Positions 8,656-41,352 of a stretch of 64,000 bases of DNA are shown here, piece by piece. The position numbers were made by a program, and so were the translations under genes. The DNA is from Candidatus Beckwithbacteria bacterium (GTDB taxonomy: Bacteria > Patescibacteriota > Microgenomatia > UBA1400 > UBA1449), in assembly GCA_012797845.1 (NCBI GenBank), contig JAAZOH010000016.1, positions 7,733 through 71,732 of the forward strand, in the 5' to 3' direction. How positions within the stretch are numbered: position 1 is the stretch's first letter; each line of letters begins with the position of its first letter. The notes beneath the pieces were generated by a model. It had not been told where the DNA came from and did no database searches. It saw only the letters and a list, made by a program, of their open reading frames with translations.

Positions 8656-8721
8656 ATTTTCAAGAAATTTATAATCTCTTTTAGTGTAATTAATTACAGC
8701 TTAAAACTCAATAATAGCCTT

Positions 8722-23037: not shown

Positions 23038-24291
23038 TCAGCTTAAGCAAATTTTAAAGATTTGATTTCTTTTCAAGTTAGGATTTGAAATTTGGAATTT
23101 TATATAGTTATCACTCCATCCCACCCATTCTCCTTGTTTATTTTTCGCTTCAATTAAAACTCCCAATGTCTGGTTGATAAATTGTTTTCTAAAATTTTCT
23201 TCTAATTGCTTGCTTAAATCCCGTAATTTTTTGGCTCTAGCTAGCTTAGTTTTTTTAAAAACCTCTCCCCATTTTTTTTCCTTTTGCCCAGCTAAGGTTC
23301 CTGGTCGGTTTGAATAAGGAAAAACGTGGATTTTACTAAAACCAATTTCTTGTATGTTTTGTAAGCTTTCCATAAAATCTTGATCTGTTTCACCAGGAAA
23401 ACCCACAATCACATCAGTAGTAATACTAACACCTGGAATAGCTTTTTTAACCTGAGCAACTGTTTTTTTAAATTGTTTAATAGTGTAATGCCGGTTCATT
23501 CGCTTAAGCGTTTGATCACAGGCTGATTGTAAGGAAATGTGGAAGTGCCGGCACAGCCGGCCATTTTTAACATTACTAACTACATTTTGACTATAAAGGT
23601 CTAAAAAGTCTTTAGTAAAAACTTCCGGGTAAACTGAACCTAACCTAATTCGCTCAACTGAAGTCTCGGTTAAAACTTGTTTGAGCAGATCTGTCAGTAT
23701 TGCTTTGCCATCTTGGTATTGGGAAATATCAATTCCGGTTAAAACTACTTCTTTAACGCTTTGCTTCTGGGCAGTTTTGATTTGTCGAACTACCTGAGAA
23801 ACCGGTACGCTTTGGCTGCGGCCGCGCAAATAGGGAATCAAACAGTAACTACAAAATTTGTTGCAACCGGTTTGGATTTTGATAAAAGCCCGACCCGAAG
23901 CCTCATACATTAAACTGTCTGTAATTTTTTGAATTGCTGGATAATTTTCCTTTGATAAAAATGACAAAATAAGATCAACTGTTTTATCTTTATTTTTATT
24001 AGTAATAAGTAGGTCAATTGGTAAATCAATTATTTTCTTATGAAATTTTTAGTTATCTACCCAGCAACCACAAGCTACTATAAAAGCTTTTGGATATAGT
24101 TTTTTTGCCTTGCGTACATATTGTCTAATTTGCTGCTCAGCCCGAGCTGTGACTGCACAGGTATTTACAATTACTAAATCTGGTATTTCATTTTTAGCTA
24201 ATGAAAAACCTTGCTCCTGAAGCTGCCTGGCAATTTCTGTACTTTCCGCAATATTAAGCCGACACCCAAAAGTTTTGATAATAAATTTCAT
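23038..24291 (-). pseudogene. MiaB/RimO-family radical-SAM methylthiotransferase interrupted by one in-frame TAA (N-terminal MTTase domain 24049..24291; radical SAM + TRAM 23038..24048)
   Basis: The 80-aa ORF has the MTTase N-domain motifs (TFGCRLN, NTCAVT, ACGCW). The downstream ORF is in the SAME frame, open from 24048, and carries CNKFCSYC radical-SAM and TRAM domains. A single TAA at 24049-24051 separates them. Confidence 0.6.
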
Positions 24292-24329: not shown

Positions 24330-25010
24330 ATGAAACAGCTCATGTTATTTGATATCGACCAAACCATTTTTGATGGCTACACTATTTTTCCTCTTACCAA
24401 GGCTCAATTTCAGGACAAATTTATTGATTTTAAAACCATGGAGCTTTTTACTCAAGATCTGGCCGAATATAAAGTAGGGCTGTATGATTATGAAAAGTTT
24501 GTAGCTGTGCTTTTAGATCATTGGGCTAAGGGTTTAGCTGGTCAATCGTATCAGGCAGTCTTTGATCATAGCTTTAGTTTTTTTAAAAAACATAAAAAAC
24601 ATTTCTTTAGTTATTTTAGTAAAGTTGTCAAAAATTGTAGCCAAACTCACGATATCTTTTTAGTAACTGGTGAACCTGACTTTCTGGCTGCCAGCATTGC
24701 TAAAATGTTTAATGTTAAAGGTTACTTAGCTTCCCAATTTGAGCTTAATCAACAAGGTCTCTTTACTGGTAAAGTCAGTCAGTATCTAGCTACTAAAAAA
24801 GATAAAAAAGAGGCTTTAGATGGATTGTTTCAGAAATACTCTTTCAAAAACTCATATGCTTTCGGTGATTCCGAAGCTGATATTCAAATGCTGTCTTTGG
24901 TTGAACATCCTATTTGCGTCAATCCTGGTGCTGATTTGGAAAAAATAGCTCTTAAAAAAGCCTGGTCAGTGATTGATCCGGAAACATTTGATGTTTCGAT
25001 ATTAAAATAA
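24330..25010 (+). CDS. HAD-superfamily hydrolase, subfamily IB (PSPase-like)
   Basis: Motif I FDIDQT at the N-terminus, motif III K, motif IV GDSEAD. Confidence 0.65.
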   Translation: MKQLMLFDIDQTIFDGYTIFPLTKAQFQDKFIDFKTMELFTQDLAEYKVGLYDYEKFVAVLLDHWAKGLAGQSYQAVFDHSFSFFKKHKKHFFSYFSKVVKNCSQTHDIFLVTGEPDFLAASIAKMFNVKGYLASQFELNQQGLFTGKVSQYLATKKDKKEALDGLFQKYSFKNSYAFGDSEADIQMLSLVEHPICVNPGADLEKIALKKAWSVIDPETFDVSILK

Positions 25011-26018
25011 ATGTCTTGATAAGTATTCCACTCCCTTACCGGGTTTTAAAGTTACCACTTTCTTTACTCCTTGGAGTTTATTCAAACGTTGTTTAATTTT
25101 AGAAACATTTTTTTCCAAAGCTAAAATTTTGATTTGTGGTCCTGCATCAATCGTAAAATAAGCTTCTAAGCCTTCGTCCCGCCAATTTTGAACTTGATGT
25201 ATTAGCTCGACTGTTTCGGGTAGCCAATAAATAATAGACGGTTTGGTAGTTAACATTAATGCGTGTAGTTTTAGTGCATTATGTTCAGAAATTTCTCCCA
25301 TTTTAGTAAAATTTTTAGCTTTGATAGCTTGTTTTATTTCCTTTAAATCCTGTTCAACAGTTGCAAGCCAACAAGGATAAAACGGACAGGTAGCTACGGT
25401 TTGTTTCATGCCAGCTCGAGTTTTAAGCTCTTTTTTCTTGGTACTAACTACTACCGTTAACATACACAACTGAGGCCAATAGTTCTCATCATAAAGTTGA
25501 ACTGCATAACTATCACTGCCATCTGCTTTTGAGCCTTTTTGCCACTCCACAAAACCACCCAAAATACTTCGACAAGAAGATCCTGAACCTTGACGGCTTA
25601 AAATTGAGAGCTGTTTAGAGTTTAAATTTAACCCAGCTGCTTTAGCTGAAGCGGCTGCCAGTGCTGCAGCTCCTGAAGCTGAAGAAGCCAGTCCGGCTTG
25701 AGTTTCAACTTCGTTTTGGGAAACTACCTTGGCTTTTAATTTGATTTTTGCTAGTTTACGAGCTAGATTTAGTTGACCAATCACTCGATCATATTCTTCT
25801 CCTTCTTTAAATTCCTGACCATCAAGTGTAAAAATGTCTCGTTTATAGCTAGAGTTAAATTCAACAGTTGTGGTTGAACCGTACTGGTCCCAAGTAATCG
25901 CTAAGTTACTATTTTGAGGCAGGATTAAGGTTTCATCTCGTTTACCCCAATACTTAACCAAAGCCATGCTAATATTGGCATGAGCAGTGGCTTTTAGATG
26001 TTTTTTCATAGTTTGCAT
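25002..26018 (-). CDS. mvaD: Diphosphomevalonate decarboxylase
   Basis: ALVKYWGKRD N-terminal signature, GHMP-kinase-like ATP loop (GLASSASGAAALAAA). Confidence 0.85.
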   Translation of the reverse strand: MQTMKKHLKATAHANISMALVKYWGKRDETLILPQNSNLAITWDQYGSTTTVEFNSSYKRDIFTLDGQEFKEGEEYDRVIGQLNLARKLAKIKLKAKVVSQNEVETQAGLASSASGAAALAAASAKAAGLNLNSKQLSILSRQGSGSSCRSILGGFVEWQKGSKADGSDSYAVQLYDENYWPQLCMLTVVVSTKKKELKTRAGMKQTVATCPFYPCWLATVEQDLKEIKQAIKAKNFTKMGEISEHNALKLHALMLTTKPSIIYWLPETVELIHQVQNWRDEGLEAYFTIDAGPQIKILALEKNVSKIKQRLNKLQGVKKVVTLKPGKGVEYLSRHLF

Positions 26019-26024
26019 ATGTAA

Positions 26025-27008
26025 TTAATTACTTTTCTCATCAATACTAACTCCTTTGGCTCCAGTTTCGACTGGTACCAATGTTCCTCCTGCTTCTACT
26101 AAACGTTGCTCAATTACATGTTTATGGCCATTGGCAGACATAACAATTAAGCAATCTCCTCCACCTGATCCAGAGAGTTTAGCTCCTTCAGCCCCATGCA
26201 AAATTGAGGTCACACAAAGTTTGTGCAAAATGTCGGTACTTACTCCTAGATCATGAAGAATTTTTTGGTTTTTATTAAATAGCTCTCCTAATTCTTCCCA
26301 CCGTTTGGTTTCAATTAAATCTCTAGCTTTTTTTACCAGTTTAGTAATAAGATCAAAACGACTGTTAACATAATTGGGTTTAAGAGTCCGCATTTTGGCT
26401 AATTTTTTAACAATGGTAGCCGTGTCAGCTTTAACACCAGAATAAACTACAATAAGAGGAAGTTTTTTAATTTCTAAAGGTTCGATAACTTTACCACCAG
26501 TTTCAAAATATAAAGTCCCACCCCAAATGGCTGCAGCTACATCAAAACCAGACCCTACACCCTGCACTTCAAGTACAGCTTGGTATGCAATTTCAAAAAT
26601 TTCTTGATTGCTTAATTTTAGATTGAAAAGTTCGGAAATACCTTTGGCCGTACAGACACTCACTGCTGAAGAGCTACCTAAACCATATTTAGATGAAAAG
26701 CCATTTCTAGTCCGAATTGAAAGCCCAGAATTAAGTTTGTATTTTTCGTATAAAATTTGCAATACTGCTTCAATAAATTGAACTCCTCGAGGCAGTTTCT
26801 TAGACGGTTTAAAATCAGTGATAGAACGCTTGTAGTTTTTGATTTCCACTTCTGGAGCATTAATAGTCAAAGTTGGAACTTTAGTGGTTTTAATTTGTAC
26901 ATGAACCCGAGAATCGACTGCTGTTACTAAACAAGGTCGATCATAAACCACACTATGTTCGCCCAGCAGCATTAATTTCCCTGGAGCCGAAACGGTAATT
27001 TTAGCCAT
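26025..27008 (-). CDS. GHMP kinase, mevalonate/phosphomevalonate kinase-like (candidate phosphomevalonate kinase)
   Basis: APGKLMLLGEHSVVY N-terminal motif, GLGSSSA P-loop, C-terminal SGSGGGDC resembling bacterial PMK SGAGGGDC. Confidence 0.55.
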   Translation of the reverse strand: MAKITVSAPGKLMLLGEHSVVYDRPCLVTAVDSRVHVQIKTTKVPTLTINAPEVEIKNYKRSITDFKPSKKLPRGVQFIEAVLQILYEKYKLNSGLSIRTRNGFSSKYGLGSSSAVSVCTAKGISELFNLKLSNQEIFEIAYQAVLEVQGVGSGFDVAAAIWGGTLYFETGGKVIEPLEIKKLPLIVVYSGVKADTATIVKKLAKMRTLKPNYVNSRFDLITKLVKKARDLIETKRWEELGELFNKNQKILHDLGVSTDILHKLCVTSILHGAEGAKLSGSGGGDCLIVMSANGHKHVIEQRLVEAGGTLVPVETGAKGVSIDEKSN

Positions 27009-27017
27009 AAAATCTCC

Positions 27018-28109
27018 TTAGTGTTTGGTAATAGGGTTTGCCCTTTCGATGCGCAAACCTTCACTACCAAGCGTGGTAGTAAAAGTTGCTAGTTTATGTT
27101 TTTGACAAATTTCTGTAATTTTTGTTTTATCCTTGTGGTAAGCCAGTACAATACCTGAACCTTTTTTGGCTCCGCCGCCGCCACAAATCTTGGCAGCTCC
27201 TCCTGCTTTTTGGATTTGGGCAATAAGTGTTTGAGCTGTTAGCGAGACCACCCCAATTTTTTCTAAATTAATTTCACCCTGGTTGATGAGTTTTTTGACC
27301 GTCACTTCATCTCCATCATGCAAAGCAGTAAGAAGCTGACGACTCACTTCTTCTTGATCTTTTAAAAATTTGGTAAATAAAGCAGGTTTTTTCTGGGAAA
27401 ATAATTTAACCTTATGAACCATTTCTCCAGTTGATTCCGCTGGCTTACCTGTATGTATCAAAATAAAATTTTGAGCTAGTTTTTTAGGGATAGCAAAGTT
27501 AATTGGAGTGATAGTTTTTAAAATCGAGATTTCCTTGCGGTACCACAAAAGTCCTCCAAAACAGGTGATGGCTGTATCAGCTCCAGACGGATTGCCATGC
27601 ATATGTTTTTCAATTGTATGGGCAATAGAGCTAATCACCGTTTTATCAAGCGGTAAACCAAGAGTTGCAGTCAAGGCTCCAGTAGTAGCCACAGCCAAAG
27701 CTGCCGAAGAACCCAAACCAGAACCAGTCTCTAAATCAGAATCAATAGTGAGAGTAAAACCGTTTTTGAGCTGTTTGCGGTAAAATGCAAACGTTTCAAT
27801 GATGGCAATTTTGACATAAGTCAGCTCCGTACTACGACTAAAATCAAGGTATTTAATTTGATTGTCCTGCTCAAATTGTTTTAAGTTTTTTCGAGCTTTT
27901 TGAGTTGAAACTACCATTTGATTAATTGAAGTCTCCTCAGAAAGATTGAGTTTTTTATCTATTAAAACAATCTTATTGTCATTAGTGGGTGTGATTGTAA
28001 CTTGGAGCCTTTTATCAATGGCCGCTAACAAAGCCGGTTTGCCATACACCACACTATGTTCACCCATCAGAATAATTTTGCCTGGTACCGAAACAGTTAT
28101 GCTTTTCAT
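27018..28109 (-). CDS. mvk: Mevalonate kinase (GHMP kinase); start set at the ATG overlapping the upstream stop (ATGA); the ORF track extends to 28175
   Basis: VPGKIILMGEHSVVYGKPAL, GLGSSAALAVA P-loop, C-terminal ICGGGGAKKGSG. Confidence 0.65.
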   Translation of the reverse strand: MKSITVSVPGKIILMGEHSVVYGKPALLAAIDKRLQVTITPTNDNKIVLIDKKLNLSEETSINQMVVSTQKARKNLKQFEQDNQIKYLDFSRSTELTYVKIAIIETFAFYRKQLKNGFTLTIDSDLETGSGLGSSAALAVATTGALTATLGLPLDKTVISSIAHTIEKHMHGNPSGADTAITCFGGLLWYRKEISILKTITPINFAIPKKLAQNFILIHTGKPAESTGEMVHKVKLFSQKKPALFTKFLKDQEEVSRQLLTALHDGDEVTVKKLINQGEINLEKIGVVSLTAQTLIAQIQKAGGAAKICGGGGAKKGSGIVLAYHKDKTKITEICQKHKLATFTTTLGSEGLRIERANPITKH

Positions 28110-29173
28110 ATTGTTAGTAAGGTTTCTAATAATGTAGGATTTGCTTGTAATTTTTGAATAGCTAGTTCTGCCCAAAAGGCAATATCTTGGTGTTTTTGGC
28201 TAAATTGCAAAAGCTGATCCCAAGAAAGCCATTGATAATTACTAAGCTCATTTTTATCTGGAACAATTGCACCAGAATATTTGGCTATCATCAAATAATT
28301 ATGTTCATTTTCCGCTAAAGCTTTTGTCCATTGTTTTTGGTAGTTATAAGTTAGTAAAGGCGTAAAATTGGCAATGGTAATGCCAAGTTCCTGTTTGACA
28401 CGGCGCTGGCAAGCTTTAGTAATATCTTCTCCAAACCAAGGATGTGAAGAAAAACTCATATCCCAATACTGCGGCCACAGTGGTTTAAACTCTGATCTTT
28501 TGGTGAGTAAAATTTGCTGGTGATCATTGACAATAATGGCAGTAAAAGCCCGGTGATGCTGACCTACTCCCTGGTGAGCTGCATATTTTTCAATCTGGCC
28601 TAATTCCTGATCATGCTCATCAACCAAAATCAGTAACTCCTGAAGCTTGGCAAGAATTGTTTTATCTTCTAAAGCTTTAGCCAAACAGGGGGTTACTTTT
28701 ATATCTCCTTGTTGGTATTTTTTCAAAATATCGCTCAAAAAGTACCACTGCCCTCCAGCCACTTCATCTGTATTAAAATTAAAATCACCCTCAAAATTAG
28801 CTTTGTAAACAGTGACTAGCTCTGCTTCACGCTGCGTTTGATAAGAGACTGTACCGATTTGTACAAATTGATCTTTAGGGACAATAACTCCCAATTCTTC
28901 TTGAGTTTCCCGATCCACAGTATCTAGGTAATTCGAGCCAGCATCAACATGGCCTGAAGCCGAAAAAACCCAATAACCAGGGTACAGATCTTTACTTAAG
29001 CTTCGATGTTGTAAAAATATCTGGCCTTTTTGATTAAGAAGAAAAACTACAGCTGCCCGATGTCTTAACTTGGGATTTTGATGACACTCTCCCCTAGTAG
29101 CTTGACCAATCACTTGGTCATGTTGGTCAACAAGGTCAAATAGTTCTGATTGTTTGTCAGTAGTTTGAATCAT
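28106..29173 (-). CDS. Tandem-duplicated Nudix protein, isopentenyl-diphosphate isomerase type 1-like
   Basis: Two IDI-like Nudix halves (HRAAVVFLLNQKGQIFLQHRSLSKDLYPGYW... and HRAFTAIIVNDHQQILLTKRSEFKPLWPQYW...). The catalytic Cys position is Ser in both (SASGH / SFSSH). Confidence 0.55.
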   Translation of the reverse strand: MIQTTDKQSELFDLVDQHDQVIGQATRGECHQNPKLRHRAAVVFLLNQKGQIFLQHRSLSKDLYPGYWVFSASGHVDAGSNYLDTVDRETQEELGVIVPKDQFVQIGTVSYQTQREAELVTVYKANFEGDFNFNTDEVAGGQWYFLSDILKKYQQGDIKVTPCLAKALEDKTILAKLQELLILVDEHDQELGQIEKYAAHQGVGQHHRAFTAIIVNDHQQILLTKRSEFKPLWPQYWDMSFSSHPWFGEDITKACQRRVKQELGITIANFTPLLTYNYQKQWTKALAENEHNYLMIAKYSGAIVPDKNELSNYQWLSWDQLLQFSQKHQDIAFWAELAIQKLQANPTLLETLLTI

Positions 29174-29448
29174 AGTAATTCTTGGGCTAGTTGAAATTTA
29201 ATGCCGTATGGTATCAAATCTTTGGGGCCTACGCTTGATAAGATGCGAACTACTCCGACTACTTGGTCTCCGATTTTGGGTTCTAATAGAGTCGCTGCAA
29301 TAGGCGCTGTTATTTTCTTGCTACCCAAGTCAACAATCCCAATCCATTGTTTATTAGCTTGATTATGAGTAATGCTCATAATAATGCCTTTTTTACCTAA
29401 GAGTTCATGTTGCTGCTTTGCTTTACGCCAATATAGTGCTGGTTCCAT
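29170..29448 (-). CDS. DUF35-like OB-fold protein (thiolase/HMGCS scaffold homologue) lacking the N-terminal zinc ribbon
   Basis: 92 aa with the GKKGIIMSITH...WIGIVDL...IGDQVVGVV pattern of DUF35 OB folds. Directly downstream of the thiolase and HMG-CoA synthase genes, as in the archaeal operon. Confidence 0.45.
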   Translation of the reverse strand: MEPALYWRKAKQQHELLGKKGIIMSITHNQANKQWIGIVDLGSKKITAPIAATLLEPKIGDQVVGVVRILSSVGPKDLIPYGIKFQLAQELL

Positions 29449-29453
29449 AGGTT

Positions 29454-30608
29454 TTAACGGATTAAAACATGGACCACAGCTGTGCCCCCTGTTCCTCCCA
29501 CATTATGAGTAACTGCCACCAGGGCTTCATCAACTTGGCGTTGGCCAGCTACTTGACGCAGTTGAGTAGTAGCTTCTACGATTTGTTTTACACCAGTTGC
29601 TCCCAAGGGGTGGCCACAGGCTTTCAAGCCACCAGAAGTATTGATAGGTTGTTTTCCTCCTAACCAGGTTTCTTGCTTGGTGATATGGCCATACGCTTCG
29701 CCTTGTCTATAAAGCCCTAAATCTTCCATGGCTACAATTTCGGCAATGGTAAAACAATCATGAACTTCAACACAATTAATATCAGCAGCAGTAATACCAG
29801 CCTGGGCGTAGGCAGTTTTGGCAGCTTGTTTACTGGCTGATAAGCTGGTTAAACTTTGGCGGCTGGCCAGCGATAAGCTGTCTTGGGCTTGAGCTGAACC
29901 ATTGATATAGACTCCATTTTTGAGCTGTTTTTTCTTAGCCCAGGAAGGAGCCGCCAAAAATACGGCTGCTGCCCCATCGCTAATAGGCGAACAGTCCAAA
30001 ACTTTGAGCGGGTCAGCTACTTTTGAACTTTTAATCACTTGCTCTAAACTAATTTGATTTTGAAAATGAGCCTTTTGGTTTAAATAACCATGGTAGTGAT
30101 TTTTGACGGCTACTTGAGCCAAATCAGCTTCGCTAGCCCCAAATTTGGCAATATAAGCCTGAGCTATCAAAGCATAAAGTCCTGGAAAATTAAGACCTGC
30201 TAAGTACTCATCTTGATCCGCCGCTGCCATGATGGCTTGGCTAATCTGCTCACTATCAGCATCCGTCATTTTCTCTACTCCTATTACTAAAGCATTGGCA
30301 ATAGCTCCACTAGCAATGGCCTGAACAGCTTGGAAAACCGCCATTCCTCCCGAAGCACAAGCTCCTTCAACCCGAGTCACCGGAGCACTAATACCAAGCT
30401 CCTGAGCTAGCTGCGCTCCTAAATGTTTTTGCCCAAAGCCATTACCACCCAGCATGTTACCTATATACACAGCTTCAACTGAAGCAGTTGTAGCTCCAGC
30501 ATCAGCCAAACACCCTATAGCTGCCTCATGCATCAGATCAGTTAAACTTTGATCCCACAGTTCCCCAAATTGCGTTTGGTAGGCTCCACAGACTGCGACT
30601 TTGTTCAT
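29454..30608 (-). CDS. Acetoacetyl-CoA thiolase, archaeal/SCP2-type
   Basis: EGACASGGMAV catalytic Cys region, C-terminal GHPLGATG and NVGGTGG motifs. 384 aa. Confidence 0.8.
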   Translation of the reverse strand: MNKVAVCGAYQTQFGELWDQSLTDLMHEAAIGCLADAGATTASVEAVYIGNMLGGNGFGQKHLGAQLAQELGISAPVTRVEGACASGGMAVFQAVQAIASGAIANALVIGVEKMTDADSEQISQAIMAAADQDEYLAGLNFPGLYALIAQAYIAKFGASEADLAQVAVKNHYHGYLNQKAHFQNQISLEQVIKSSKVADPLKVLDCSPISDGAAAVFLAAPSWAKKKQLKNGVYINGSAQAQDSLSLASRQSLTSLSASKQAAKTAYAQAGITAADINCVEVHDCFTIAEIVAMEDLGLYRQGEAYGHITKQETWLGGKQPINTSGGLKACGHPLGATGVKQIVEATTQLRQVAGQRQVDEALVAVTHNVGGTGGTAVVHVLIR

Positions 30609-31660
30609 AGATTTCTTTCTAGTATGCCCATTGCTTGTAAATACTGGTCATAACTTAGTTGCTTAGTTTGGTTAATTTGTTTTGTAAAAGCTTCTTGTTC
30701 CTGCTTGGTTCCATTTTTAAGAACGTTAAACCAGATGATATCTGAACCTGCTCCTGAACCATAGGAGGCCAGCAGAATGTTTTGGCCTTTTTTGGCAAAA
30801 GCTAATGTCCGGCACAGACCCAGTAGCGATGAGGCTGAATAAGGATTGCCAATATCTTTGACCGTAAAACCAGCCTCAAGCTGTTTGGAGTTGATTTTGA
30901 GTTTTTGGGCTAATTTCAGAGGAAATTTACCATTGGGCATATGAAAAACAATGTGATCAAAGTCGTCTAGTTTGGCTTTAGTTTTTTGCAAAAAATAAGC
31001 CAAGTTGCTTTCGATATGGTGGAAATAGCCTGGTTCACCACTAAAACGACCGGCATGTTGGGGAAAAATCTGCTCTGGACGGCGCCAAAAATCAGGCGTG
31101 TCAGTGGCATAAGAAGAGGTCGCTACCACTTTGGCTCGACCTGGTCGGCAGCCAATAATGAGGGCTACAGCGGCACTGGCAGCCGCGTATTCTAAAACGT
31201 CACTGGGTTGGCTTTGGGCTTTATCGCTGCCGATAATCAGGGCAGCTTTAATCATTTGAGCTTCGACTAAACCACTGCCAATTTGTAAACCACTGGTTCC
31301 AGCTTTGCAGGCAAATTCCAAGTCTGCACAAAAGTAATGAGGTGATAATCCTAACCAGGAAGCCACAATACTACCCGAAGGTTTGACCGCATAAGGATGG
31401 GATTCACTACCCATCAACACTGCTCCAATTTGATTTTTGGCATAATTTGAGCCAGCTAAAGCCCGACCAGCTGCCATGATAGCCATCGTAATGGCATCTT
31501 CATCCCAGTTTGCTATCGACTTTTGATAAAGTCCTAAAGAGCTACTAATACTAGCTCCATCTTCCTGATAAGTTTGAGCAATAGTATCGACTGTAATTCG
31601 GCCCGAAGGAATATAGCTGGCAATTGTATCTAGATAAACGTGTTGTAATTTCTTAATCAT
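30605..31660 (-). CDS. mvaS: HMG-CoA synthase, short archaeal-type
   Basis: 351 aa, catalytic Cys in FCADLEFACKAGTSGL, GSGAGSD C-terminal motif. 4-nt overlap with thiolase. Confidence 0.8.
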   Translation of the reverse strand: MIKKLQHVYLDTIASYIPSGRITVDTIAQTYQEDGASISSSLGLYQKSIANWDEDAITMAIMAAGRALAGSNYAKNQIGAVLMGSESHPYAVKPSGSIVASWLGLSPHYFCADLEFACKAGTSGLQIGSGLVEAQMIKAALIIGSDKAQSQPSDVLEYAAASAAVALIIGCRPGRAKVVATSSYATDTPDFWRRPEQIFPQHAGRFSGEPGYFHHIESNLAYFLQKTKAKLDDFDHIVFHMPNGKFPLKLAQKLKINSKQLEAGFTVKDIGNPYSASSLLGLCRTLAFAKKGQNILLASYGSGAGSDIIWFNVLKNGTKQEQEAFTKQINQTKQLSYDQYLQAMGILERNL

Positions 31661-32801
31661 GTTTCCCTCTGCCTAAACTTTGGTGAGCACAAGCCAGTTG
31701 GTTACTAGCTAAAGCTGCAGTCAAAGATAATTCTCCTGCCAAAACCACAGCCCCAATAATTTCAGCCAAATATGAAGCACTACCTGTAAAAGGCTTATCA
31801 ATTCCTAAAATAGTCAAGGCCTCCTGCTGAGTGGGCAAATGAGTTCCTCCACCCACGGTACCCACCATAAGACTGGGCAGGTAAACTGAAAAATAAAGCT
31901 TATCTCCATCTAGTTCCGCACTGGTTACACCCAGACTACCTTCAACTATATGAGCTAAATCCTGACCAGTTGCCAGATAGGTAGCCGCAACGATATTGGC
32001 AAAATGGCCGTTATAGCCTAAAGAGCCGTGCAGAGCCGAACCCAAAAGCTGTTTTGATTGCACAGTTTCCACTATGTTTTGTGGTGAGGTTTTTAAAACT
32101 GTTTCGACAATTTCTTTGGCAATAATAGTTTCAGCCCAGACTTTTTTGCCTCGACCTGATAAAAATGTTGACCAAGCTGGTTTTTTATCAACACAAGCAT
32201 TGCCTGATAAAATTGTGGTCACTTCAAATTTTTTGCTGATAAAATCTAACATTGCCTGAGTGGCCATGGTAACCATATTCATACCCATAGCTTCGGCCGT
32301 ATCAAAACTAAAACGCAGATACAGATGTTTGCCAGCCAGCTGGTATTGCCAGTTTTGTAAGGCAAGATGTGACTCGGTTTCATGAGCCAAGGTTTTCAGT
32401 TCTTCCCAATGCGTATCAATAAAAGCAATAATTTGTCTACCTTGAGCAATGTTGGTGAGTTTGAGGTGAGGACCTCTGGAAGCCCCCACATTTTCATGAA
32501 AACTGGTAATACCACCAGACAAACGAGTCGCTTTTAAACCTCGATTAATACTGGCAAGCAAAGCTCCTTCGGTAGTTGCCAAAGGAATATCCAGCTCTTT
32601 TTGCCCAAACTGATCTGAGTTTAAAAGGAGTGGACCAGCTATTCCCATCGGTACTTGAGCAATACCAATCATTTGCTCGCAGTTGCGATTTTGAGCTAAG
32701 TTTAAGTCAATAACTGCTCCGCCAATGTGGGGTAGTTTTTTTGATAACTTAGTTTCTAGACTAGCTCGTCTATCTTGAGGATTTATAGTAGTACGGTTCA
32801 T
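31653..32801 (-). CDS. hmgA: HMG-CoA reductase, class I catalytic domain
   Basis: VPMGIAGPL, TTEGALLAS, EAMGMNMV, GNACVDKKP, GTVGGGT motifs. Confidence 0.85.
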   Translation of the reverse strand: MNRTTINPQDRRASLETKLSKKLPHIGGAVIDLNLAQNRNCEQMIGIAQVPMGIAGPLLLNSDQFGQKELDIPLATTEGALLASINRGLKATRLSGGITSFHENVGASRGPHLKLTNIAQGRQIIAFIDTHWEELKTLAHETESHLALQNWQYQLAGKHLYLRFSFDTAEAMGMNMVTMATQAMLDFISKKFEVTTILSGNACVDKKPAWSTFLSGRGKKVWAETIIAKEIVETVLKTSPQNIVETVQSKQLLGSALHGSLGYNGHFANIVAATYLATGQDLAHIVEGSLGVTSAELDGDKLYFSVYLPSLMVGTVGGGTHLPTQQEALTILGIDKPFTGSASYLAEIIGAVVLAGELSLTAALASNQLACAHQSLGRGKHD

Positions 32802-33175
32802 TTACTTTTTTTGATCTTAATAACTTGCCATAGCCAAAATCCTAAATAGAGAAAGCTCAGAAAAGACAGGAGTAAAACCAGACTAATCGAGGCTTTAGTT
32901 AAAAAACCCCATTGCCCTGGCGGTGCATCAATGAGTCTGCGACCAAGCCAAATAGTTGCTAAACCACCAGCAAACACATAGGCTGGAAAACCAAAAATTA
33001 AAATAATTTGCGAAAAATCCTGTTCCCGAAACATAGCTCGCACCGTCTGGAACGGATGTGTAACTAGTCCCAACCAGTTGCGGACAAAAAGATAGCCTTC
33101 TTTAATAGAAAGTAAAATGGAGTATTTAACTATCCTGGTCGAAGTAGCTTGACTGGTAAAGATAAGCTTTAGCAA
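32798..33175 (-). CDS. Small membrane protein, candidate anti-sigma factor
   Basis: Three hydrophobic segments; overlaps the 3' end of the ECF sigma gene. Confidence 0.3.
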   Translation of the reverse strand: MLKLIFTSQATSTRIVKYSILLSIKEGYLFVRNWLGLVTHPFQTVRAMFREQDFSQIILIFGFPAYVFAGGLATIWLGRRLIDAPPGQWGFLTKASISLVLLLSFLSFLYLGFWLWQVIKIKKSK

Positions 33176-33692
33176 AGGCTAAACGGGCTCGAGACAATCT
33201 CGATTCTGCAGCTTTATAACTGATCTGTAGCTGGGCAGCAATAGCATGCACGCTCAAACCTTCCATATATCTTAGTCGTAAAATCTTAGCATTTCCTTCG
33301 CTCAGTTTTTTAAAGGTGGCAAAAATCTTAAGTTTTGCCTCTTTTTCTTCTAAAGCCAGTTGTGGTCCCAAAGCTTTATCAACAATTTGCTCTAAAAATG
33401 GGAATTTGGAAAACAGCAAAGTTTTAATCTTTTTACGCCGGTAGTAATCAACCAACTCGTGATGGGCAATAGCTCTGACCCAGGTTTTGAAACTGCTTTG
33501 ACCTTTATAGGTAGGCAAGCTATCAAAAACAGCTAAGATAGTATCTTGAATTATTTCTTCTCTATCTCGGCTGTTGCTGATTTTATGATCAAAATACGTA
33601 GCTAAATACGGTTTTAATTTTCGGTAAAATTGCAGCACAGAGCGTGGTTTTTCCAAAATGACATTGGTAAGTTGCTGCTCATTAAATTCCAT
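33126..33692 (-). CDS. ECF-type RNA polymerase sigma-70 family factor
   Basis: Region 2 (IIQDTILAVFDSL...FKTWVRAIAHHELVDYYRRKK) and region 4 HTH (LRYMEGLSVHAIAAQLQISYKAAESRLSRARLAF). Confidence 0.7.
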   Translation of the reverse strand: MEFNEQQLTNVILEKPRSVLQFYRKLKPYLATYFDHKISNSRDREEIIQDTILAVFDSLPTYKGQSSFKTWVRAIAHHELVDYYRRKKIKTLLFSKFPFLEQIVDKALGPQLALEEKEAKLKIFATFKKLSEGNAKILRLRYMEGLSVHAIAAQLQISYKAAESRLSRARLAFAKAYLYQSSYFDQDS

Positions 33693-33693
33693 A

Positions 33694-34740
33694 TTATTTA
33701 TTTCTACTTAGCATAAATTCTAACAAATTTTTCAGCGTATCCTGATGCTTTTTATTATCTGTGAGTTCTGGGATGAGTTTCAACCCTTCTTCAAAATAGT
33801 CTTGAGCTTGAGACTGAGCCGCTTCTACTACTTTATATGTTCGCATGAATTGTTTAATAGTAGCAATATTTTGGTCGTTACGAACTTTTTTTGCAAATAA
33901 TCTTTCAAAAGTTTTTTTATCAGCCTCTTTAAGTTTTTGGTATAAAATTTCAATAAGAACCGTCCACTTAGCTTCTCTAATATCACCACTATTAGTTTTA
34001 CCAGTTTGGCTTTCATCACCAAAACTACCAATAATATCATCCTGGATTTGGAAAATCCGACCTAAGCATTGACCATATTGCTCTAATGTTGCCAGCCACT
34101 TTTTGTCTTGTTGTCCCGCTAGTATTGCCCCCAACATCAGCGGTAAAACTCCCGAATAGCTGACCGTTTTAAAATCATGGATATATTGGGCCGAGCTTTG
34201 CTTGGCAGCAAGTGATATATATGGTGTACTCATATCCCAACCTTGCCCCCAACCGACTTCTACAGCCTTTTTGAAAAAATAGTTTAAAGCTTTGATTTTT
34301 ACATCTGGTTCAAAATTGGTGTGTTCTAAAGCTAAGGGAGCTAAGTAAAAACCAATGTTGGCCGTATTAAAAGCCATGCTATAACCATAATGCAAAGGTT
34401 TATCTTGGGCCCACTGTATATGAATAGTCGGCTGACCACGTCTTACCTCATCATTATCATAAACATCATCAGCAATCAGTCCTGCGGTCTGGAGTAGCTC
34501 CACCATCATCGAAGCTTTATAGATACAAGCTTGACGTTTACCTCCTGATAAATGATACGCTAAAACAACTAATGCTCCTCGAAACTGCTTGCCTTTAGGA
34601 TAAAGCTCTACAAATTTTTCTAAAATTTGCTCTGGAATAACTCCTGTTTGTTTAGCTTGTTTTTGCCAAGAGCTAAAAAAATTTTGCCAATATGGTTTAA
34701 CTTTACTTTGATAGTCTTGCAGAAAATCTTCAATTTGCAT
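33694..34740 (-). CDS. trans-Isoprenyl (polyprenyl) diphosphate synthase
   Basis: First DDxxD (LIADDVYDND) and second (FQIQDDIIGSFGD) aspartate-rich motifs. Confidence 0.8.
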   Translation of the reverse strand: MQIEDFLQDYQSKVKPYWQNFFSSWQKQAKQTGVIPEQILEKFVELYPKGKQFRGALVVLAYHLSGGKRQACIYKASMMVELLQTAGLIADDVYDNDEVRRGQPTIHIQWAQDKPLHYGYSMAFNTANIGFYLAPLALEHTNFEPDVKIKALNYFFKKAVEVGWGQGWDMSTPYISLAAKQSSAQYIHDFKTVSYSGVLPLMLGAILAGQQDKKWLATLEQYGQCLGRIFQIQDDIIGSFGDESQTGKTNSGDIREAKWTVLIEILYQKLKEADKKTFERLFAKKVRNDQNIATIKQFMRTYKVVEAAQSQAQDYFEEGLKLIPELTDNKKHQDTLKNLLEFMLSRNK

Positions 34741-34803: not shown

Positions 34804-35133
34804 ATGTTTCAAGTAAATATCGGTGAAAAGTTTATTTTAGGTGAAGGAGGGGTAGGCATAGGAACCAGCAATAGTGGCTATGACACCCTGGGTATAGTGA
34901 TATCAAATTTAGTTCCTAATATTTTAGTTATTGCTAATATTATTTTGTTTTTCTTTATTTTATTTGGTGGATTTACTATCATTACAAATGCCGGCAATCC
35001 TGACAAGCAAGCTGAAGGAACCAAAACATTAACTTGGGCTTTTGTTGGTTTTTTGATTATTTTTGGAGCTTATTGGATTATGCAAATTCTTAAAATCATT
35101 ACTGGCTTTGATTTACTTAATAGCCAATTGTAA
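34804..35133 (+). CDS. VirB2/TrbC-like pilin family protein, paralogue 1
   Basis: Two hydrophobic helices flanking the conserved loop GGFTIITNAGNPDKQAEGTKTLTWAFVGF. All 7 paralogues share GG(F/I)xW(I/T)TSxGDxxK...A(K/R)xx(I/T)xxAxxGL. Confidence 0.5.
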   Translation: MFQVNIGEKFILGEGGVGIGTSNSGYDTLGIVISNLVPNILVIANIILFFFILFGGFTIITNAGNPDKQAEGTKTLTWAFVGFLIIFGAYWIMQILKIITGFDLLNSQL

Positions 35134-35142
35134 AATATACGT

Positions 35143-35505
35143 ATGTTACTTTCACCATTAATCGGTCAATTTACTCCGCCTCCTCAATTTAAAGGACTTT
35201 TAAACCCGAATGGATACGCAGCTGATCCAAGTGGTTTGATCATGCTTATTAGTAATTTGGTTAAATTTTTTATCATTCTGGGTGGTTTAGCTGCATTTGT
35301 CAATTTTCTATTGGCTGGTTTTCAATATATTACCCAAGGAGACAAACCGGATGAACTTTCCCGAATTCATACTAAAATGTATATGTCGATTATTGGCTTA
35401 GTAGTCATGGTAAGCGCAGTAGTATTAACTGGAATTATCAGCTTTATTTTATATGGCGATCCAAGTTTTATTTTAAACCCACAGGTATATGGACCAAATC
35501 CATAA
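35143..35505 (+). CDS. VirB2/TrbC-like pilin family protein, paralogue 2 (divergent)
   Basis: Same two-helix topology; loop AGFQYITQGDKPDELSRIHTKMYMSIIGL. Confidence 0.45.
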   Translation: MLLSPLIGQFTPPPQFKGLLNPNGYAADPSGLIMLISNLVKFFIILGGLAAFVNFLLAGFQYITQGDKPDELSRIHTKMYMSIIGLVVMVSAVVLTGIISFILYGDPSFILNPQVYGPNP

Positions 35506-35511
35506 AAAGGT

Positions 35512-35961
35512 ATGAAATATCTAAAACAAATTTCAATATTTTTTGTTTTACCAATACTATTATTTTTATTGAGCACAACTGCTTTAGCTCAGTACGCCAC
35601 TCCTTTAAATCCTGGCAAGGGTCTTGATGGTGGCATTGGTCCTTATAATGTCCCCATTGGTTCGGGTGATATAGCTTATCTATCAAAATTGGAGTCAATT
35701 TTTTCCATAGTAGTCAGTTTTATGACTATTTTGACTGGCTTATTTTTTATTATTCATTTTGTAATTGGTGGGTTTACCTGGTCTACAGCTGGTGGAGATA
35801 GTCAAAAAGTAGAAACAGCTAAAACTAAAATGACTAATGCTGCTATTGGGTTGATTATTGTAATTGCCTCTTATTCGATTATTTATATTATTGGCAAAGT
35901 ACTTGGTTTGGATATACTTAATGTTGGCAGTTTGATTTATACATATTTACGTCCTAGTTAA
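35512..35961 (+). CDS. VirB2/TrbC-like pilin family protein, paralogue 3
   Basis: Signal peptide ending ALAQ, then GGFTWSTAGGDSQKVETAKTKMTNAAIGLII. Confidence 0.5.
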   Translation: MKYLKQISIFFVLPILLFLLSTTALAQYATPLNPGKGLDGGIGPYNVPIGSGDIAYLSKLESIFSIVVSFMTILTGLFFIIHFVIGGFTWSTAGGDSQKVETAKTKMTNAAIGLIIVIASYSIIYIIGKVLGLDILNVGSLIYTYLRPS

Positions 35962-35966
35962 TATTT

Positions 35967-36326
35967 ATGGCTTTTTTGCAATTTATCCAGATTCCTGGTC
36001 TTTCAGGTATTAAAAATAGCGTTATCAATTCCAGTGAAGGAACGTATAGCGGAGTTGATAATTCAAGTCCTTTAGCTGCCCTGATTGCTAGATTGTGGTT
36101 AGTAGCTGTTATCCTAGGCTCACTGGCTGTAATATTATTTCTAGTCATGGGAGCCATAGATTGGATTTCGAGCGATGGAGATCCTGAAAAAATTAAAAAG
36201 GCTCGTAATAAAATCGTTGATGCTGTTGTTGGTTTGGGAATATTAGTAGCTTCGTTTGCTATTGTGAAATTTTTAGAATGGATATTTGGATTTGATATAT
36301 TAAATATTTCTTGGCCAACTCCATGA
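35967..36326 (+). CDS. VirB2/TrbC-like pilin family protein, paralogue 4
   Basis: MGAIDWISSDGDPEKIKKARNKIVDAVVGLGIL. Confidence 0.5.
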   Translation: MAFLQFIQIPGLSGIKNSVINSSEGTYSGVDNSSPLAALIARLWLVAVILGSLAVILFLVMGAIDWISSDGDPEKIKKARNKIVDAVVGLGILVASFAIVKFLEWIFGFDILNISWPTP

Positions 36327-36784
36327 AAATTAAAACCCTAATCATTTCATGTATTGCTGCTTTTTTTGCCTTTCTTTTTCAAAGTGAGCTGGTTTTTGCT
36401 CAGGTAAACACCGATATTGGTTCAGCTGTATCCCAACATGGATTTTTTAAAGATAATATCGGTACTTTTATTACACAAATCATTAATACTGGTCTTATTT
36501 TAGGTGCTATTCTTTGTCTGTTTTATCTTATTATTGGAGCTATTGAATGGATTACCTCTGAAGGTGATCAAAATAAAAATGAATCAGCTCGAAAAAGAAT
36601 TACTGCTGCAGTAGTCGGTTTAGGGGTTATGGCTTGTATTTATGCCTTATGGGTCTTAGTATTGTATTTCTTTGGTATTGATAAGATTTCTAATTTTAAT
36701 ATTGGCAGTAATCTAAAACACAATTTTTCAAATGTAAGTTCACTATTGAATCATGATGGGATTAGTTATCCTGGTTCTTGCTAA
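36323..36784 (+). CDS. VirB2/TrbC-like pilin family protein, paralogue 5 (start at the ATG overlapping the upstream stop; ORF track gives TTG at 36311)
   Basis: Signal peptide ending VFAQ, then IGAIEWITSEGDQNKNESARKRITAAVVGLGVM. Confidence 0.5.
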   Translation: MKIKTLIISCIAAFFAFLFQSELVFAQVNTDIGSAVSQHGFFKDNIGTFITQIINTGLILGAILCLFYLIIGAIEWITSEGDQNKNESARKRITAAVVGLGVMACIYALWVLVLYFFGIDKISNFNIGSNLKHNFSNVSSLLNHDGISYPGSC

Positions 36785-36920
36785 TCTCTGATAACTTTTA
36801 GGAGTTAGTGTGAATAAATATCTCTCTTGACTTAGCAAAATCTTAAAGTCATAGTATAATAATAGTAAGATAGAATATAAAAAGTATTATTAATATTTTA
36901 ATAAATAATTTACAATTCTT

Positions 36921-37331
36921 TTGAAAGGCGGTGACAGTATGAAACAAGTTACACAAAAAATCATTCAAGCAGCATTGACAGCTGGTGCTGTTATTTTCAC
37001 TACTGTCAGCCCAATACTGGCTCAGGGGAACATAACCATCGAGGAGCCCACTGGTGGAGTTAAAGATTTTGGAAAACTCTTATCTGCTGGTATTCAAACT
37101 GCTATTATTCTTGCAGCCATTCTAACCTTTGCTTTCTTGATTTGGGGAGGTATTCAATGGATTACATCCGGAGGCGATAAAGCTGCTTATGAAGCTGCAA
37201 GAGGTCGAATTACTGCAGCTTTAGTAGGGCTTGCTATTGTAGCCGCAGCTTGGGCTGTTATGAAACTAGTTGGTTATTTCTTTGGAGTTAACGTTTTTGA
37301 TTTTGAAATTCCAACTGCATCAGGAAGTTAG
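36921..37331 (+). CDS. VirB2/TrbC-like pilin family protein, paralogue 6; candidate major subunit (own RBS GGCGGTGA and own terminator)
   Basis: Signal peptide ending ILAQ, then WGGIQWITSGGDKAAYEAARGRITAALVGLAIV. Preceded by a 137-nt AT-rich spacer and followed by a strong terminator. Confidence 0.55.
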   Translation: MKGGDSMKQVTQKIIQAALTAGAVIFTTVSPILAQGNITIEEPTGGVKDFGKLLSAGIQTAIILAAILTFAFLIWGGIQWITSGGDKAAYEAARGRITAALVGLAIVAAAWAVMKLVGYFFGVNVFDFEIPTASGS

Positions 37332-37353
37332 TTTATTCTAAATGCATAAATTT

Positions 37354-37385
37354 AAAAACCCGGCTTTGCCGGGTTTTTTGTTGCG
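37354..37385 (+). terminator. Rho-independent terminator AAAAACCCGGC-TTTG-GCCGGGTTTTTTG
   Basis: Perfect 6-bp GC stem (CCCGGC/GCCGGG) with T6 tail, immediately after pilin paralogue 6. Confidence 0.75.
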
Positions 37386-37418
37386 TTAATATAACTATCA
37401 TGAGAAAATAGTGAATAT

Positions 37419-37844
37419 ATGAAATTGAGCAAAACTCTACTAGCTTCTCCTTTTTTTATTACTTACTTTTTACTGTTCACTGCTAGTGAGGCTTTTGCTC
37501 AATCTAATTGGTATAGCTCCCAAGATGGTAGTAAACCAGCTACCTTTAAAGATTTAGAAATTGTCTTTAGTAATATTTTAGGTTTATTTATTCCTTTGGC
37601 TGGAGCCGCTGTTTTTATTATGATCATTATTGGTGGATTTACCTATATGACTTCTGGCGGCAATCCCGAAGCAAATGCTAAAGCAGGAACCACTTTAACC
37701 TGGGCAGTAGTCGGACTTTTATTTCTTTTAGGTGGTTGGTTTATCCTCCGTTTTATTAGCAACTTTACTGGTGTTGATGTGACTATCTTTACTATTCCTG
37801 CTCCCGCTTCAACCCCTAATCCTTATAGTCAGATGGGTTTTTAG
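37419..37844 (+). CDS. VirB2/TrbC-like pilin family protein, paralogue 7
   Basis: Signal peptide ending AFAQ, then IGGFTYMTSGGNPEANAKAGTTLTWAVVGLLFL (closest to paralogue 1). Confidence 0.5.
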   Translation: MKLSKTLLASPFFITYFLLFTASEAFAQSNWYSSQDGSKPATFKDLEIVFSNILGLFIPLAGAAVFIMIIIGGFTYMTSGGNPEANAKAGTTLTWAVVGLLFLLGGWFILRFISNFTGVDVTIFTIPAPASTPNPYSQMGF

Positions 37845-40900: not shown

Positions 40901-41292
40901 TGACTAGAATTAATGCTAATGGCTATTGGAGTTCTGATGAATTTACTAAGAATTTTGATATGGTTTACGATTCTGCGATAGCAGCTGGCTGGAATCCTGC
41001 GTTCGTAGTTGCTCTATGGATCGAGGAATCAGGAGGTTCAGCAGTTACTGCTTGGGATTTAGGATGCAAATATGGCAAAACTAGTACTGGTAGCATGTTA
41101 ATGCCTAAAAATAATATTGCCCTACAGCTTGAATGTTTATTTGAAAAAGACTATGCTACTTTGCCTTGGGAAGAATTTGCACTCACTTATGCCGAAGGTG
41201 CCAGAGAAGGTCGGCAGGATCCGGACAAATTTTGTAATAATCCTAATTTTCCAGGAGGGATTATCAGCGTCTATGAAGCACTAGTTAAATAG
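37903..41292 (+). CDS. Large (1129 aa) Cys-rich secreted/surface protein; C-terminal ~150 aa have a lytic-transglycosylase-like Glu motif (VVALWIEESGGSAVTAWDLG)
   Basis: N-terminal signal/anchor (LLVILFFIAILLTYLQIIYPQLARA), more than 25 Cys in the CxxC/C-x-C spacing typical of extracellular domains. The C-terminal motif is only suggestive. Confidence 0.5.
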   Translation: MLPFHKLLVFNPCLHPSRKLLVILFFIAILLTYLQIIYPQLARAIDPNVDFFNTHEFTQVTNASLSLYDHPGTSEGHPLDSQAPQLTGLLEGNTSPSVTSVYQTTPITGVDYDSSWANNRLPGVGATVAGFSSQSGQSVQVPPSGYDIGEGRTATILYYDNNSVTINYGNVGEFQTGYTIHISGIQANSELLASYQQAVAEGKLLAVSAFQELGTALSSEVLVAIRDTGALMDPRWLGDWWQYVYDPLDPLNPKLLDPTKPPLPKLDNQCTVGDSLPPDGILRPNPCQNCTLLVPDPTNSCATQPVLQKTGTWGCGEQAYRCEGENDEGGLDHDGDYVFLKDWAAVFKINTKNTTKVPFAGYRNIEKKDERSTNLNNYLRDYFEGTLLYDRIDEKNPISFSNAEDIRNLNLEAGVFRKLAPTYVQDELRKAMIKKRYNYEITNCQQGPNKDTCADGKSTRYYKTMNEWLAKAKPWPDGYYPPTSPDYQECNTITEYWAVFNCVNQADQTYANAYKNWSDTPWGLLWSYIPLFTREDAPGSVTLTIEHKPGELETAGVGSNKGKYAAEFPMAFPHLAGLYEASLNLNKLLLPTMLQDKIASNNSSSSLVSKPSQNILLAQAQTLDDTIGSEMYLAQASSDNTTEPVPETWYQTSTGLRPNEDGTTSWFFDLTKNNNFADEGSYDMVHMEFFVYVNGEQVAAYHDSPSVEQGLHYSEHIPDSIQLTPGEQLEVSVFINNGAQAINAIKEDIVGKTFISNCTVQTDGSIACDGVLMKIPEPQQTNCRKNGSSIDKNCSGNDPISDYNPNDEVCCNATAKATIEDYKIFVSEGTYKGACVCPASNPDCDLDGGGSELMTRQVEVRLKIPYLEKIYALTTGSEAGVFNIFRPQNFSEYPDNDALSGITYELVSGDGVSIVPDSGNLYYPYLGGIQETKKCLSEQFLVPRELQNGQEQCGFWSWNRYLGSTSALDLLTKGCTSMEGTIDYRNSTGFNKESIRANGLTRINANGYWSSDEFTKNFDMVYDSAIAAGWNPAFVVALWIEESGGSAVTAWDLGCKYGKTSTGSMLMPKNNIALQLECLFEKDYATLPWEEFALTYAEGAREGRQDPDKFCNNPNFPGGIISVYEALVK

Positions 41293-41352
41293 TAGTTCTG
41301 GTTGTTTGTAAGCATTGGCTGTTGTATCATATATCTAACCTTGTAAGCTTAT

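Follow-up and report, generated by a model that had tools for sequence, protein, structure and literature searches.

In archaea, a complex of acetoacetyl-CoA thiolase (AACT), 3-hydroxy-3-methylglutaryl-CoA (HMG-CoA) synthase (HMGCS or HMGS) and a DUF35 protein carries the mevalonate pathway past its unfavourable first step. The DUF35 protein links HMGS to thiolase (PMC12960953), and in the structure 6ESQ the CoA is reported to be bound in contact with residues from each of the three subunits (PMC6392133). When expressed alone, the archaeal thiolase was found to be insoluble and HMGCS inactive (PMC12960953). The Friedel-Crafts acyltransferases PhlABC of Pseudomonas and MucABC of Streptococcus, which consist of homologous HMGS-like, thiolase-like and DUF35 subunits, share the archaeal dodecameric plan (PMC6392133, PMC12960953), and the buried contacts of DUF35 in PhlABC are provided by its N-terminal segment and by the loops of the OB domain (PMC6392133). 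The mevalonate pathway was reported by Hoshino & Gaucher 2018 in most Microgenomates, a group that belongs to the candidate phyla radiation (CPR), with AACT and HMGS placed in an archaeal/CPR clade distant from the bacterial thiolase II and MvaS (PMC6107057). The locus described here lies in a 64,000-nt stretch of contig JAAZOH010000016.1 from Candidatus Beckwithbacteria (CPR/Microgenomates), hereafter the window, to which all coordinates refer. The isoprenoid genes of the window form one long minus-strand block, a complete mevalonate operon that contains the genes for HMGCS, thiolase and a 92-amino-acid (aa) protein. The last of these has a 100% identical counterpart, annotated as hypothetical, in a metagenome-assembled genome of Candidatus Beckwithbacteria, which places the host among the CPR/Microgenomates. 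The coordinates and lengths given for these three open reading frames (ORFs) in an initial annotation, as well as its statement that the shortest of them encodes no cysteine, were all found to be correct on the minus strand.

The trio is best explained as the CPR version of the archaeal thiolase/HMGCS/DUF35 complex, with the DUF35 protein reduced to a helix and an OB barrel, a reading to which a probability of about 0.7 is assigned. It resembles the archaeal complex (6ESQ/6ET9) in that this complex provides the best solved-structure match for all three proteins, with the catalytic residues kept, in that the HMGCS-thiolase-DUF35 order is the one seen in the trios that carry the closest ribbon-bearing DUF35 relatives, and in that its DUF35 protein has the N-terminal W-R helix, the OB barrel and the C-terminal YGxKF strand. 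Unlike the archaeal complex, the DUF35 protein of the window is devoid of the rubredoxin-like Cys4 zinc ribbon (about 31 residues) and has a β1-β2 loop about 8 residues shorter, and the trio is found in a CPR host, inside a full bacterial-style mevalonate operon with mevalonate kinase (MVK), a second GHMP kinase, diphosphomevalonate decarboxylase (MDD) and type 1 isopentenyl diphosphate (IPP) isomerase (IDI-1). The same operon, with archaeal-type AACT and HMGS, was described in the same lineage by Hoshino & Gaucher 2018 (PMC6107057), but DUF35 is not mentioned in that paper, and neither the conserved fourth gene nor the missing ribbon is described there.

The 92-aa protein alone gave no match in Pfam or NCBIfam, and when compared with the PDB by phmmer it reached the archaeal DUF35 chain 6esq_E only marginally (E = 1.1), tied with a spurious SH3 match. 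Single-sequence methods are thus insufficient for this protein, and its DUF35 match emerges only from family-level profile methods. A HMMER scan of 1.8 billion cluster representatives with a three-sequence profile retrieved 87 clusters, nearly all of 84–111 aa, and 76 of them were aligned. PF01796, the DUF35 OB domain, was matched individually by 59 of the 76 aligned members, and the profile built from the 76 sequences matched 6esq_E with an E-value of 9e-21, followed by weaker matches (5e-05 at best) to ChsH2-DUF35, PhlB and BbsA, all of them thiolase partners. The initial claim that the protein matches the DUF35 pattern therefore holds at the level of the family and not for the single protein, for which the proposed Pfam check was negative even though the homology is real by the family profile. 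A non-circular profile was also built from 67 CPR homologues that match PF01796, a set from which the window protein and the two sequences closest to it were excluded; tested against all stop-to-stop segments of 40 codons or more in the six frames of the window (479 in total), it matched the 92-aa ORF alone (E = 7e-11), which is far beyond chance, and no second DUF35-like segment was found in the window by this six-frame search. In an AlphaFold2 model computed from an alignment of 70 sequences (predicted local distance difference test score, pLDDT, 89; predicted template modelling score, pTM, 0.76), a helix at residues 3–16 is followed by five strands; the predicted helix carries W7 and R8, and the predicted five-stranded OB barrel ends with Y81-G-I-K-F85. 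When this model was compared with the PDB by Foldseek, the three DUF35 chains of 6esq ranked first (E about 1e-5, 29% identity), followed by BbsA (7pyt_A) and a PhlB-family subunit, ahead of generic OB proteins (E ≥ 0.01). A word-indexed database search gave 364 homologues (E ≤ 1e-5); the 120 listed were almost all of 99–105 aa and matched PF01796 only, and those listed with source names were called 'OB-fold domain-containing protein', 'uncharacterized OB-fold protein' or 'hypothetical protein'. With a PF01796-type OB domain recognised by both family profile and fold, the 92-aa protein is a real, OB-fold relative of DUF35.

No Cys4 zinc ribbon (PF12172) can be formed by the 92-aa protein, which has no cysteine. 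When the short proteins were aligned with the canonical members of the representative set, P0030 (136 aa) and P0073 (138 aa; PF12172 plus PF01796; adjoining a thiolase), a single gap of about 31 residues was found exactly at the canonical CxxC...CxxC. Both sides of the gap are common to canonical DUF35 proteins, namely the N-terminal W-R helix, the first OB strand G-K-I-x-S-x-T and the C-terminal I-x-Y-G-x-K-F. W7 and R8 do not vary and line up with 'SWRHMKERY' of 6esq_E, so that the N-terminal W-R helix is present, and the short proteins show little or no variation in the W-R and Y-G-x-K(-F) motifs, which occur in canonical DUF35 as well. In 73 of the 76 cluster representatives the helix and the first strand (R8 to G21) are 12 residues apart, which indicates that the excision is uniform across the family. 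The ribbon has been removed by a clean deletion, with the N-terminal helix and the OB barrel kept. In the Beckwithbacteria-like sub-lineage to which the window belongs (23 of the 76 representatives), the shortening of the β1-β2 loop affects residues about 28–35; the long counterpart of this loop in PhlB closes off the active-site cavity (PMC6392133). Two ways in which a ribbon could have been overlooked were ruled out: a mis-called start, by an in-frame TAA 15 nt upstream of the ATG of the 92-aa ORF, and a separate ribbon ORF, by the position of the only two CxxC...CxxC motifs in the window, both far from the operon.

The two enzymes were compared with solved structures and with family models. 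HMGCS found its best PDB match in 6esq_I, from the Methanothermococcus thermolithotrophicus complex (5e-80, 272 bits), followed by PhlA (147 bits, 8.5e-42) and by the bacterial MvaS of S. aureus and E. faecalis (69–79 bits, 5e-21). It passed the NF003274 model with 391 bits (cut-off 244) and failed the bacterial model TIGR01835 with 133 bits (cut-off 360), and so does not belong to the bacterial MvaS type. The thiolase was likewise closest to 6esq_A (1e-81), with a far weaker match to PhlC (4e-22), and passed NF004720 with 471 bits (cut-off 420). The catalytic tetrad of HMGCS is intact and invariant in 68/68 CPR loci, and the CxS, HDxF and GH motifs of the thiolase are intact and invariant in 73/73 loci. 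Both proteins align nearly end to end with the archaeal chains, and no extra domain replacing the ribbon was found in either. By these sequence comparisons, HMGCS and thiolase are archaeal-type enzymes, as the initial annotation had proposed, and all their catalytic residues are kept. Loss of the E-C-H-N tetrad of HMGS and of the thiolase HDxF marks the neofunctionalised PhlABC and MucABC (PMC12960953), in which the ribbon is kept; the CPR trio presents the opposite combination, with intact catalytic residues and a lost ribbon. With both motif sets intact, and with matches to PhlA and PhlC much weaker than those to 6ESQ, the window trio is not of the PhlABC/MucABC type.

Related loci were collected by a scan of species-representative genomes with a more homogeneous alignment (A3), which gave 77 loci from metagenome-assembled genomes (MAGs) of Gottesmanbacteria, Roizmanbacteria, Microgenomates and 'Patescibacteria group', and a metagenome contig (L001) raised the number to 78. 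A short DUF35 gene was found at the equivalent operon position in 78/78 loci, with a modal length of 99–100 aa, and a CxxC...CxxC ribbon in 0/78; the longer DUF35 calls among them are artefacts of upstream in-frame starts. The presence of the gene in orthologous operons, on which the initial annotation had made its DUF35 assignment depend, and the absence of the ribbon are thus features of the whole set. The order HMGR-HMGCS-thiolase-DUF35 (HMGR, HMG-CoA reductase) is kept in all loci wherever they cover it, and is followed in most by the mevalonate-kinase-like GHMP kinase, the second GHMP kinase and MDD. The DUF35 gene adjoins the SCP2-type thiolase in the window and in the related loci, with the exception of one locus that ends before the thiolase. 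In comparison with its closest relative (L079, 86% aa identity), the 92-aa gene gave a ratio of non-synonymous to synonymous substitution rates (dN/dS) of 0.14, indicative of purifying selection, with values of 0.05 for the thiolase and 0.17 for the Nudix gene and a dS of about 0.3–0.5. Compared with the window proteins, those of the related loci were about 30% (DUF35), 43% (HMGCS) and 50% (thiolase) identical; the faster evolution of the scaffold than of either enzyme is usual for a non-catalytic subunit. Because it is kept in all 78 loci, has a low dN/dS and shows invariant motifs common to canonical DUF35, the short DUF35 is a conserved and selected gene and not a degenerate one. Many of the operon-bearing TPA (third-party annotation) MAGs (among L005–L076, e.g., L022) are titled 'uncultured Gammaproteobacteria'; their operon structure is Patescibacteria-like, and they were probably given this title as a placeholder or by mistake.

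According to the preferred reading, the 92-aa protein would be translated in step with both enzymes from the tightly packed operon and would bind between the thiolase and HMGCS dimers. This binding would keep the thiolase soluble and hold the two active sites round a shared CoA site, where the formation of HMG-CoA would pull the unfavourable acetoacetyl-CoA condensation forward, and the product would feed the complete mevalonate pathway encoded alongside. HMGR and HMGCS overlap by 8 nt and HMGCS and thiolase by 4 nt, the thiolase stop lies 5 nt from the ATG of the 92-aa ORF, and the stop of the latter overlaps the following ATG (ATGA); these overlapping and near-abutting junctions fit coupled translation. 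The retention of the N-terminal helix and of the OB barrel, albeit with a shortened β1-β2 loop, fits a scaffold role without the ribbon. A physical complex, channeling through it and the dispensability of the ribbon for both are suggested by homology, synteny and gene packing. Several points weigh against this reading. We infer the binding of the 92-aa protein to either enzyme; the window protein falls below the Pfam and NCBIfam thresholds; every DUF35 partner in the top structure matches and in the cited papers has a ribbon, and no precedent for its dispensability was found among them; and the shared CoA site may be altered by the shortened loop of the window's sub-lineage. On balance, the ribbon is probably dispensable, and Microgenomates probably assemble a working channeling complex with a scaffold of 90–100 residues made of a helix and an OB barrel. 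The extra loss in the β1-β2 loop of the Beckwithbacteria-like sub-lineage may change the shared CoA chamber or the stoichiometry of the complex.

The main rival explanation, considered improbable, is that the short protein serves the thiolase alone, acting as a solubility or stability subunit as in BbsA-BbsB or ChsH2-DUF35-Ltp2, with no bridge to HMGCS and no fused CoA site. The benzoylsuccinyl-CoA thiolase BbsAB and Ltp2-ChsH2 DUF35 indeed combine an SCP2-type thiolase with a DUF35 partner, the family profile matches the two-component DUF35 partners 6ok1_B and 7pxp_A (5e-05 to 2e-02), and BbsA was also retrieved by Foldseek (7pyt_A). In addition, the short gene directly follows the thiolase gene, and the loss of the ribbon and of the cavity-closing loop could mean that one interface has been lost (PMC6392133). 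Nevertheless, these two-component systems have no HMGCS partner and their DUF35 bears a ribbon, and the best match of the family is by far the DUF35 of the three-component archaeal complex (9e-21, compared with 5e-05 or weaker for the others). The HMGCS-thiolase-DUF35 order is, moreover, invariant wherever a locus covers all three genes, and the N-terminal W-R helix, whose counterpart in PhlB contacts both enzymes, has been kept.

The recent acquisition of the trio from an archaeon by horizontal transfer is very unlikely. It would account for the far better scores of the enzymes against archaeal than against bacterial models, and the G+C content is slightly higher in the operon core (0.41–0.44) than in its flanks (0.35–0.41), but there is no strong compositional break. 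The operon, short DUF35 included, is syntenic across Gottesmanbacteria-, Roizmanbacteria- and Beckwithbacteria-type and other Microgenomates genomes, and identities to the window of only 39–53% for HMGCS and 44–67% for thiolase across the related loci point to a long vertical history. The trees of AACT, HMGS and HMGR were reported to be congruent with the CPR species tree (PMC6107057), and synteny across divergent Microgenomates and composition agree with the conclusions of Hoshino & Gaucher 2018. Among the matches listed and the 78 loci, no ribbon-less form was found outside CPR-type operons. Of the two origins offered in the initial annotation, horizontal acquisition or an ancient shared module, no sign of the former in recent form was seen, and the latter had already been published (PMC6107057).

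The ribbon-bearing relatives bear on the direction of the change. A search with the canonical P0073 gave 9 proteins, whose loci are HMGCS-thiolase-DUF35 trios that do not belong to a full operon and have a gene for either a DRG-type GTPase or an AsnC regulator close by; these neighbour genes suggest that the trios are archaeal. Since the closest ribbon-bearing relatives sit in such non-operon trios with archaea-like neighbours, the loss of the ribbon appears to be derived in the CPR lineage. The other canonical member, the ribbon-bearing P0030, is followed by a MaoC-like dehydratase in L081 (138–961, plus strand) and in L082, a context that recalls archaeal ketothiolase/DUF35 fatty-acid synthesis (bioRxiv 10.1101/2024.07.05.601840).

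A small OB-fold protein unrelated to the thiolase, either binding nucleic acids or acting like the DUF35 protein Trf (Sso2509) of Sulfolobus, is hardly credible. OB folds commonly bind nucleic acids, the lower Foldseek matches include ribosomal and single-stranded DNA-binding (SSB) OB proteins, and a role as translation recovery factor has been reported for one DUF35 protein (PMC6996347); yet the gene is strictly linked in the operon to thiolase and HMGCS in all loci, and the specific sequence and structure matches are thiolase partners, with all other OB matches at E ≥ 0.01. The proposal that the ORF is a functionless, degenerate DUF35 remnant, which could draw on the lack of a Pfam or NCBIfam match, the loss of one of the two canonical domains and the absence of cysteines, is effectively refuted by the uniform length and shared ribbon loss of the gene in all 78 loci from species-level genomes, by its 364 database homologues, by its dN/dS, by the invariant residues common to canonical DUF35 and by the confidently predicted fold, so that of the two possibilities raised in the initial annotation the minimal scaffold variant is supported and the degenerate copy rejected.

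The genes of the isoprenoid block are listed in Table 1.

Table 1. Genes of the minus-strand isoprenoid block, in order of transcription (window positions).
Feature	Position	Strand	Evidence and remarks
Polyprenyl (isoprenyl diphosphate) synthase	33694..34740	-	PF00348, E = 3e-45; first gene of the same-strand isoprenoid block
ECF-type (extracytoplasmic function) sigma factor	33126..33692	-	ORF between prenyl synthase and HMGR; Sigma70_r2/r4 at the equivalent position of L001
Predicted membrane protein, 125 aa	32798..33175	-	ORF; no Pfam match; 119-aa ORF at the equivalent place in L001
HMG-CoA reductase, class I (NADPH-type)	31653..32801	-	PF00368, E = 2e-107
Archaeal-type HMG-CoA synthase, 351 aa	30605..31660	-	6esq_I, 5e-80; NF003274; tetrad E86/C118/H240/N272
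Archaeal-type (SCP2-like) acetoacetyl-CoA thiolase, 384 aa	29454..30608	-	6esq_A, 1e-81; NF004720; C84-A-S86, H283-D-C-F286, G-H333
Zinc-ribbon-less DUF35 homologue, 92 aa, 0 Cys	29170..29448	-	Family profile, AlphaFold2 fold, synteny
Tandem double-Nudix protein, 355 aa	28106..29173	-	PF00293 matches twice; C-terminal half type 1 IPP isomerase
GHMP kinase, mevalonate-kinase-like	27018..28175	-	TIGR00549, 194 bits (cut-off 163); position directly after DUF35 kept in most loci
Second GHMP kinase, candidate phosphomevalonate kinase	26025..27008	-	GHMP_kinases_N and C
Diphosphomevalonate decarboxylase (MDD)	25002..26018	-	TIGR01240, 309 bits (cut-off 171); PF22700 and PF18376

A polyprenyl synthase is also encoded in the sequence retrieved for about a dozen of the related loci. 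The placement of a sigma factor and a membrane protein between this gene and HMGR (32798–33692, minus strand) was observed in L001 as well; the 125-aa membrane protein is a possible anti-sigma partner, and the two may form a sigma/anti-sigma pair controlling the isoprenoid operon. HMGR scored 360 bits with TIGR00533, compared with 41 bits for TIGR00532, the degradative NAD type. In the double-Nudix protein, residues 178–347 matched NF002995 (IDI) with 228 bits and the N-terminal half resembles YfcD; Nudix/IDI is a single gene (165–209 aa) located elsewhere in most related loci, and the fusion is common to the window and L079. The TTG start of the mevalonate-kinase-like ORF has probably been called too far upstream. 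The second GHMP kinase is MVK-like by its NCBIfam score, with a phosphomevalonate kinase score under the cut-off; its operon position and the pathway described by Hoshino & Gaucher 2018 (PMC6107057) suggest that it is the phosphomevalonate kinase. The window operon thus contains two GHMP kinases and MDD, with no isopentenyl phosphate kinase in the operon, unlike L001, where MDD is followed by an amino-acid-kinase-family gene (8244–9050, plus strand), probably an isopentenyl phosphate kinase. This corresponds to the mixing of bacterial and archaeal pathways that has been discussed for CPR (PMC6107057). Upstream of the block, on the plus strand, seven tandem small membrane proteins, each matching PF18895 (T4SS pilin), are encoded at 34804–37844, followed at 37903–43254 by ORFs of 1129 and 633 aa without a Pfam match; pilin genes flank the operon in L001 too. 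On its other side, an apparent MiaB/MtaB-type methylthiotransferase, identified from translations alone, is divided between two minus-strand ORFs about 80 nt apart (23038–23967 and 24049–24291), an N-terminal one of 80 aa and one of 309 aa with CxxxCxxC, which could reflect a frameshift, a pseudogene or an assembly error.

The presence of an archaeal-type thiolase and HMGCS in a CPR mevalonate operon is already published (PMC6107057). Among the papers that could be searched, none linking DUF35 with CPR or Patescibacteria was found, the apparent matches seeming from their titles to concern other DUF35xx numbers, and in a 2026 survey of 1,030 bacterial HMGS/ACAT/DUF35 clusters DUF35 was described as a ribbon plus an OB domain. 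The ribbon-less, operon-fixed DUF35 of Microgenomates seems therefore to be undescribed. It is a modest variant of a well-understood system, and its closer relatives are already labelled as OB-fold proteins in databases. For annotation, the 92-aa form of the window escapes both Pfam and NCBIfam, even though the gene has a fixed place in the operon of its lineage. If a ribbon-less DUF35 does support the complex, the zinc ribbon would lie outside the functional core, and a minimal DUF35 scaffold of about 90–100 residues would be useful for pathway engineering and would show which surfaces hold the complex together. For the evolution of the family, the loss of the ribbon would be a derived character within the CPR/archaeal mevalonate module and could serve to trace the history of that module.

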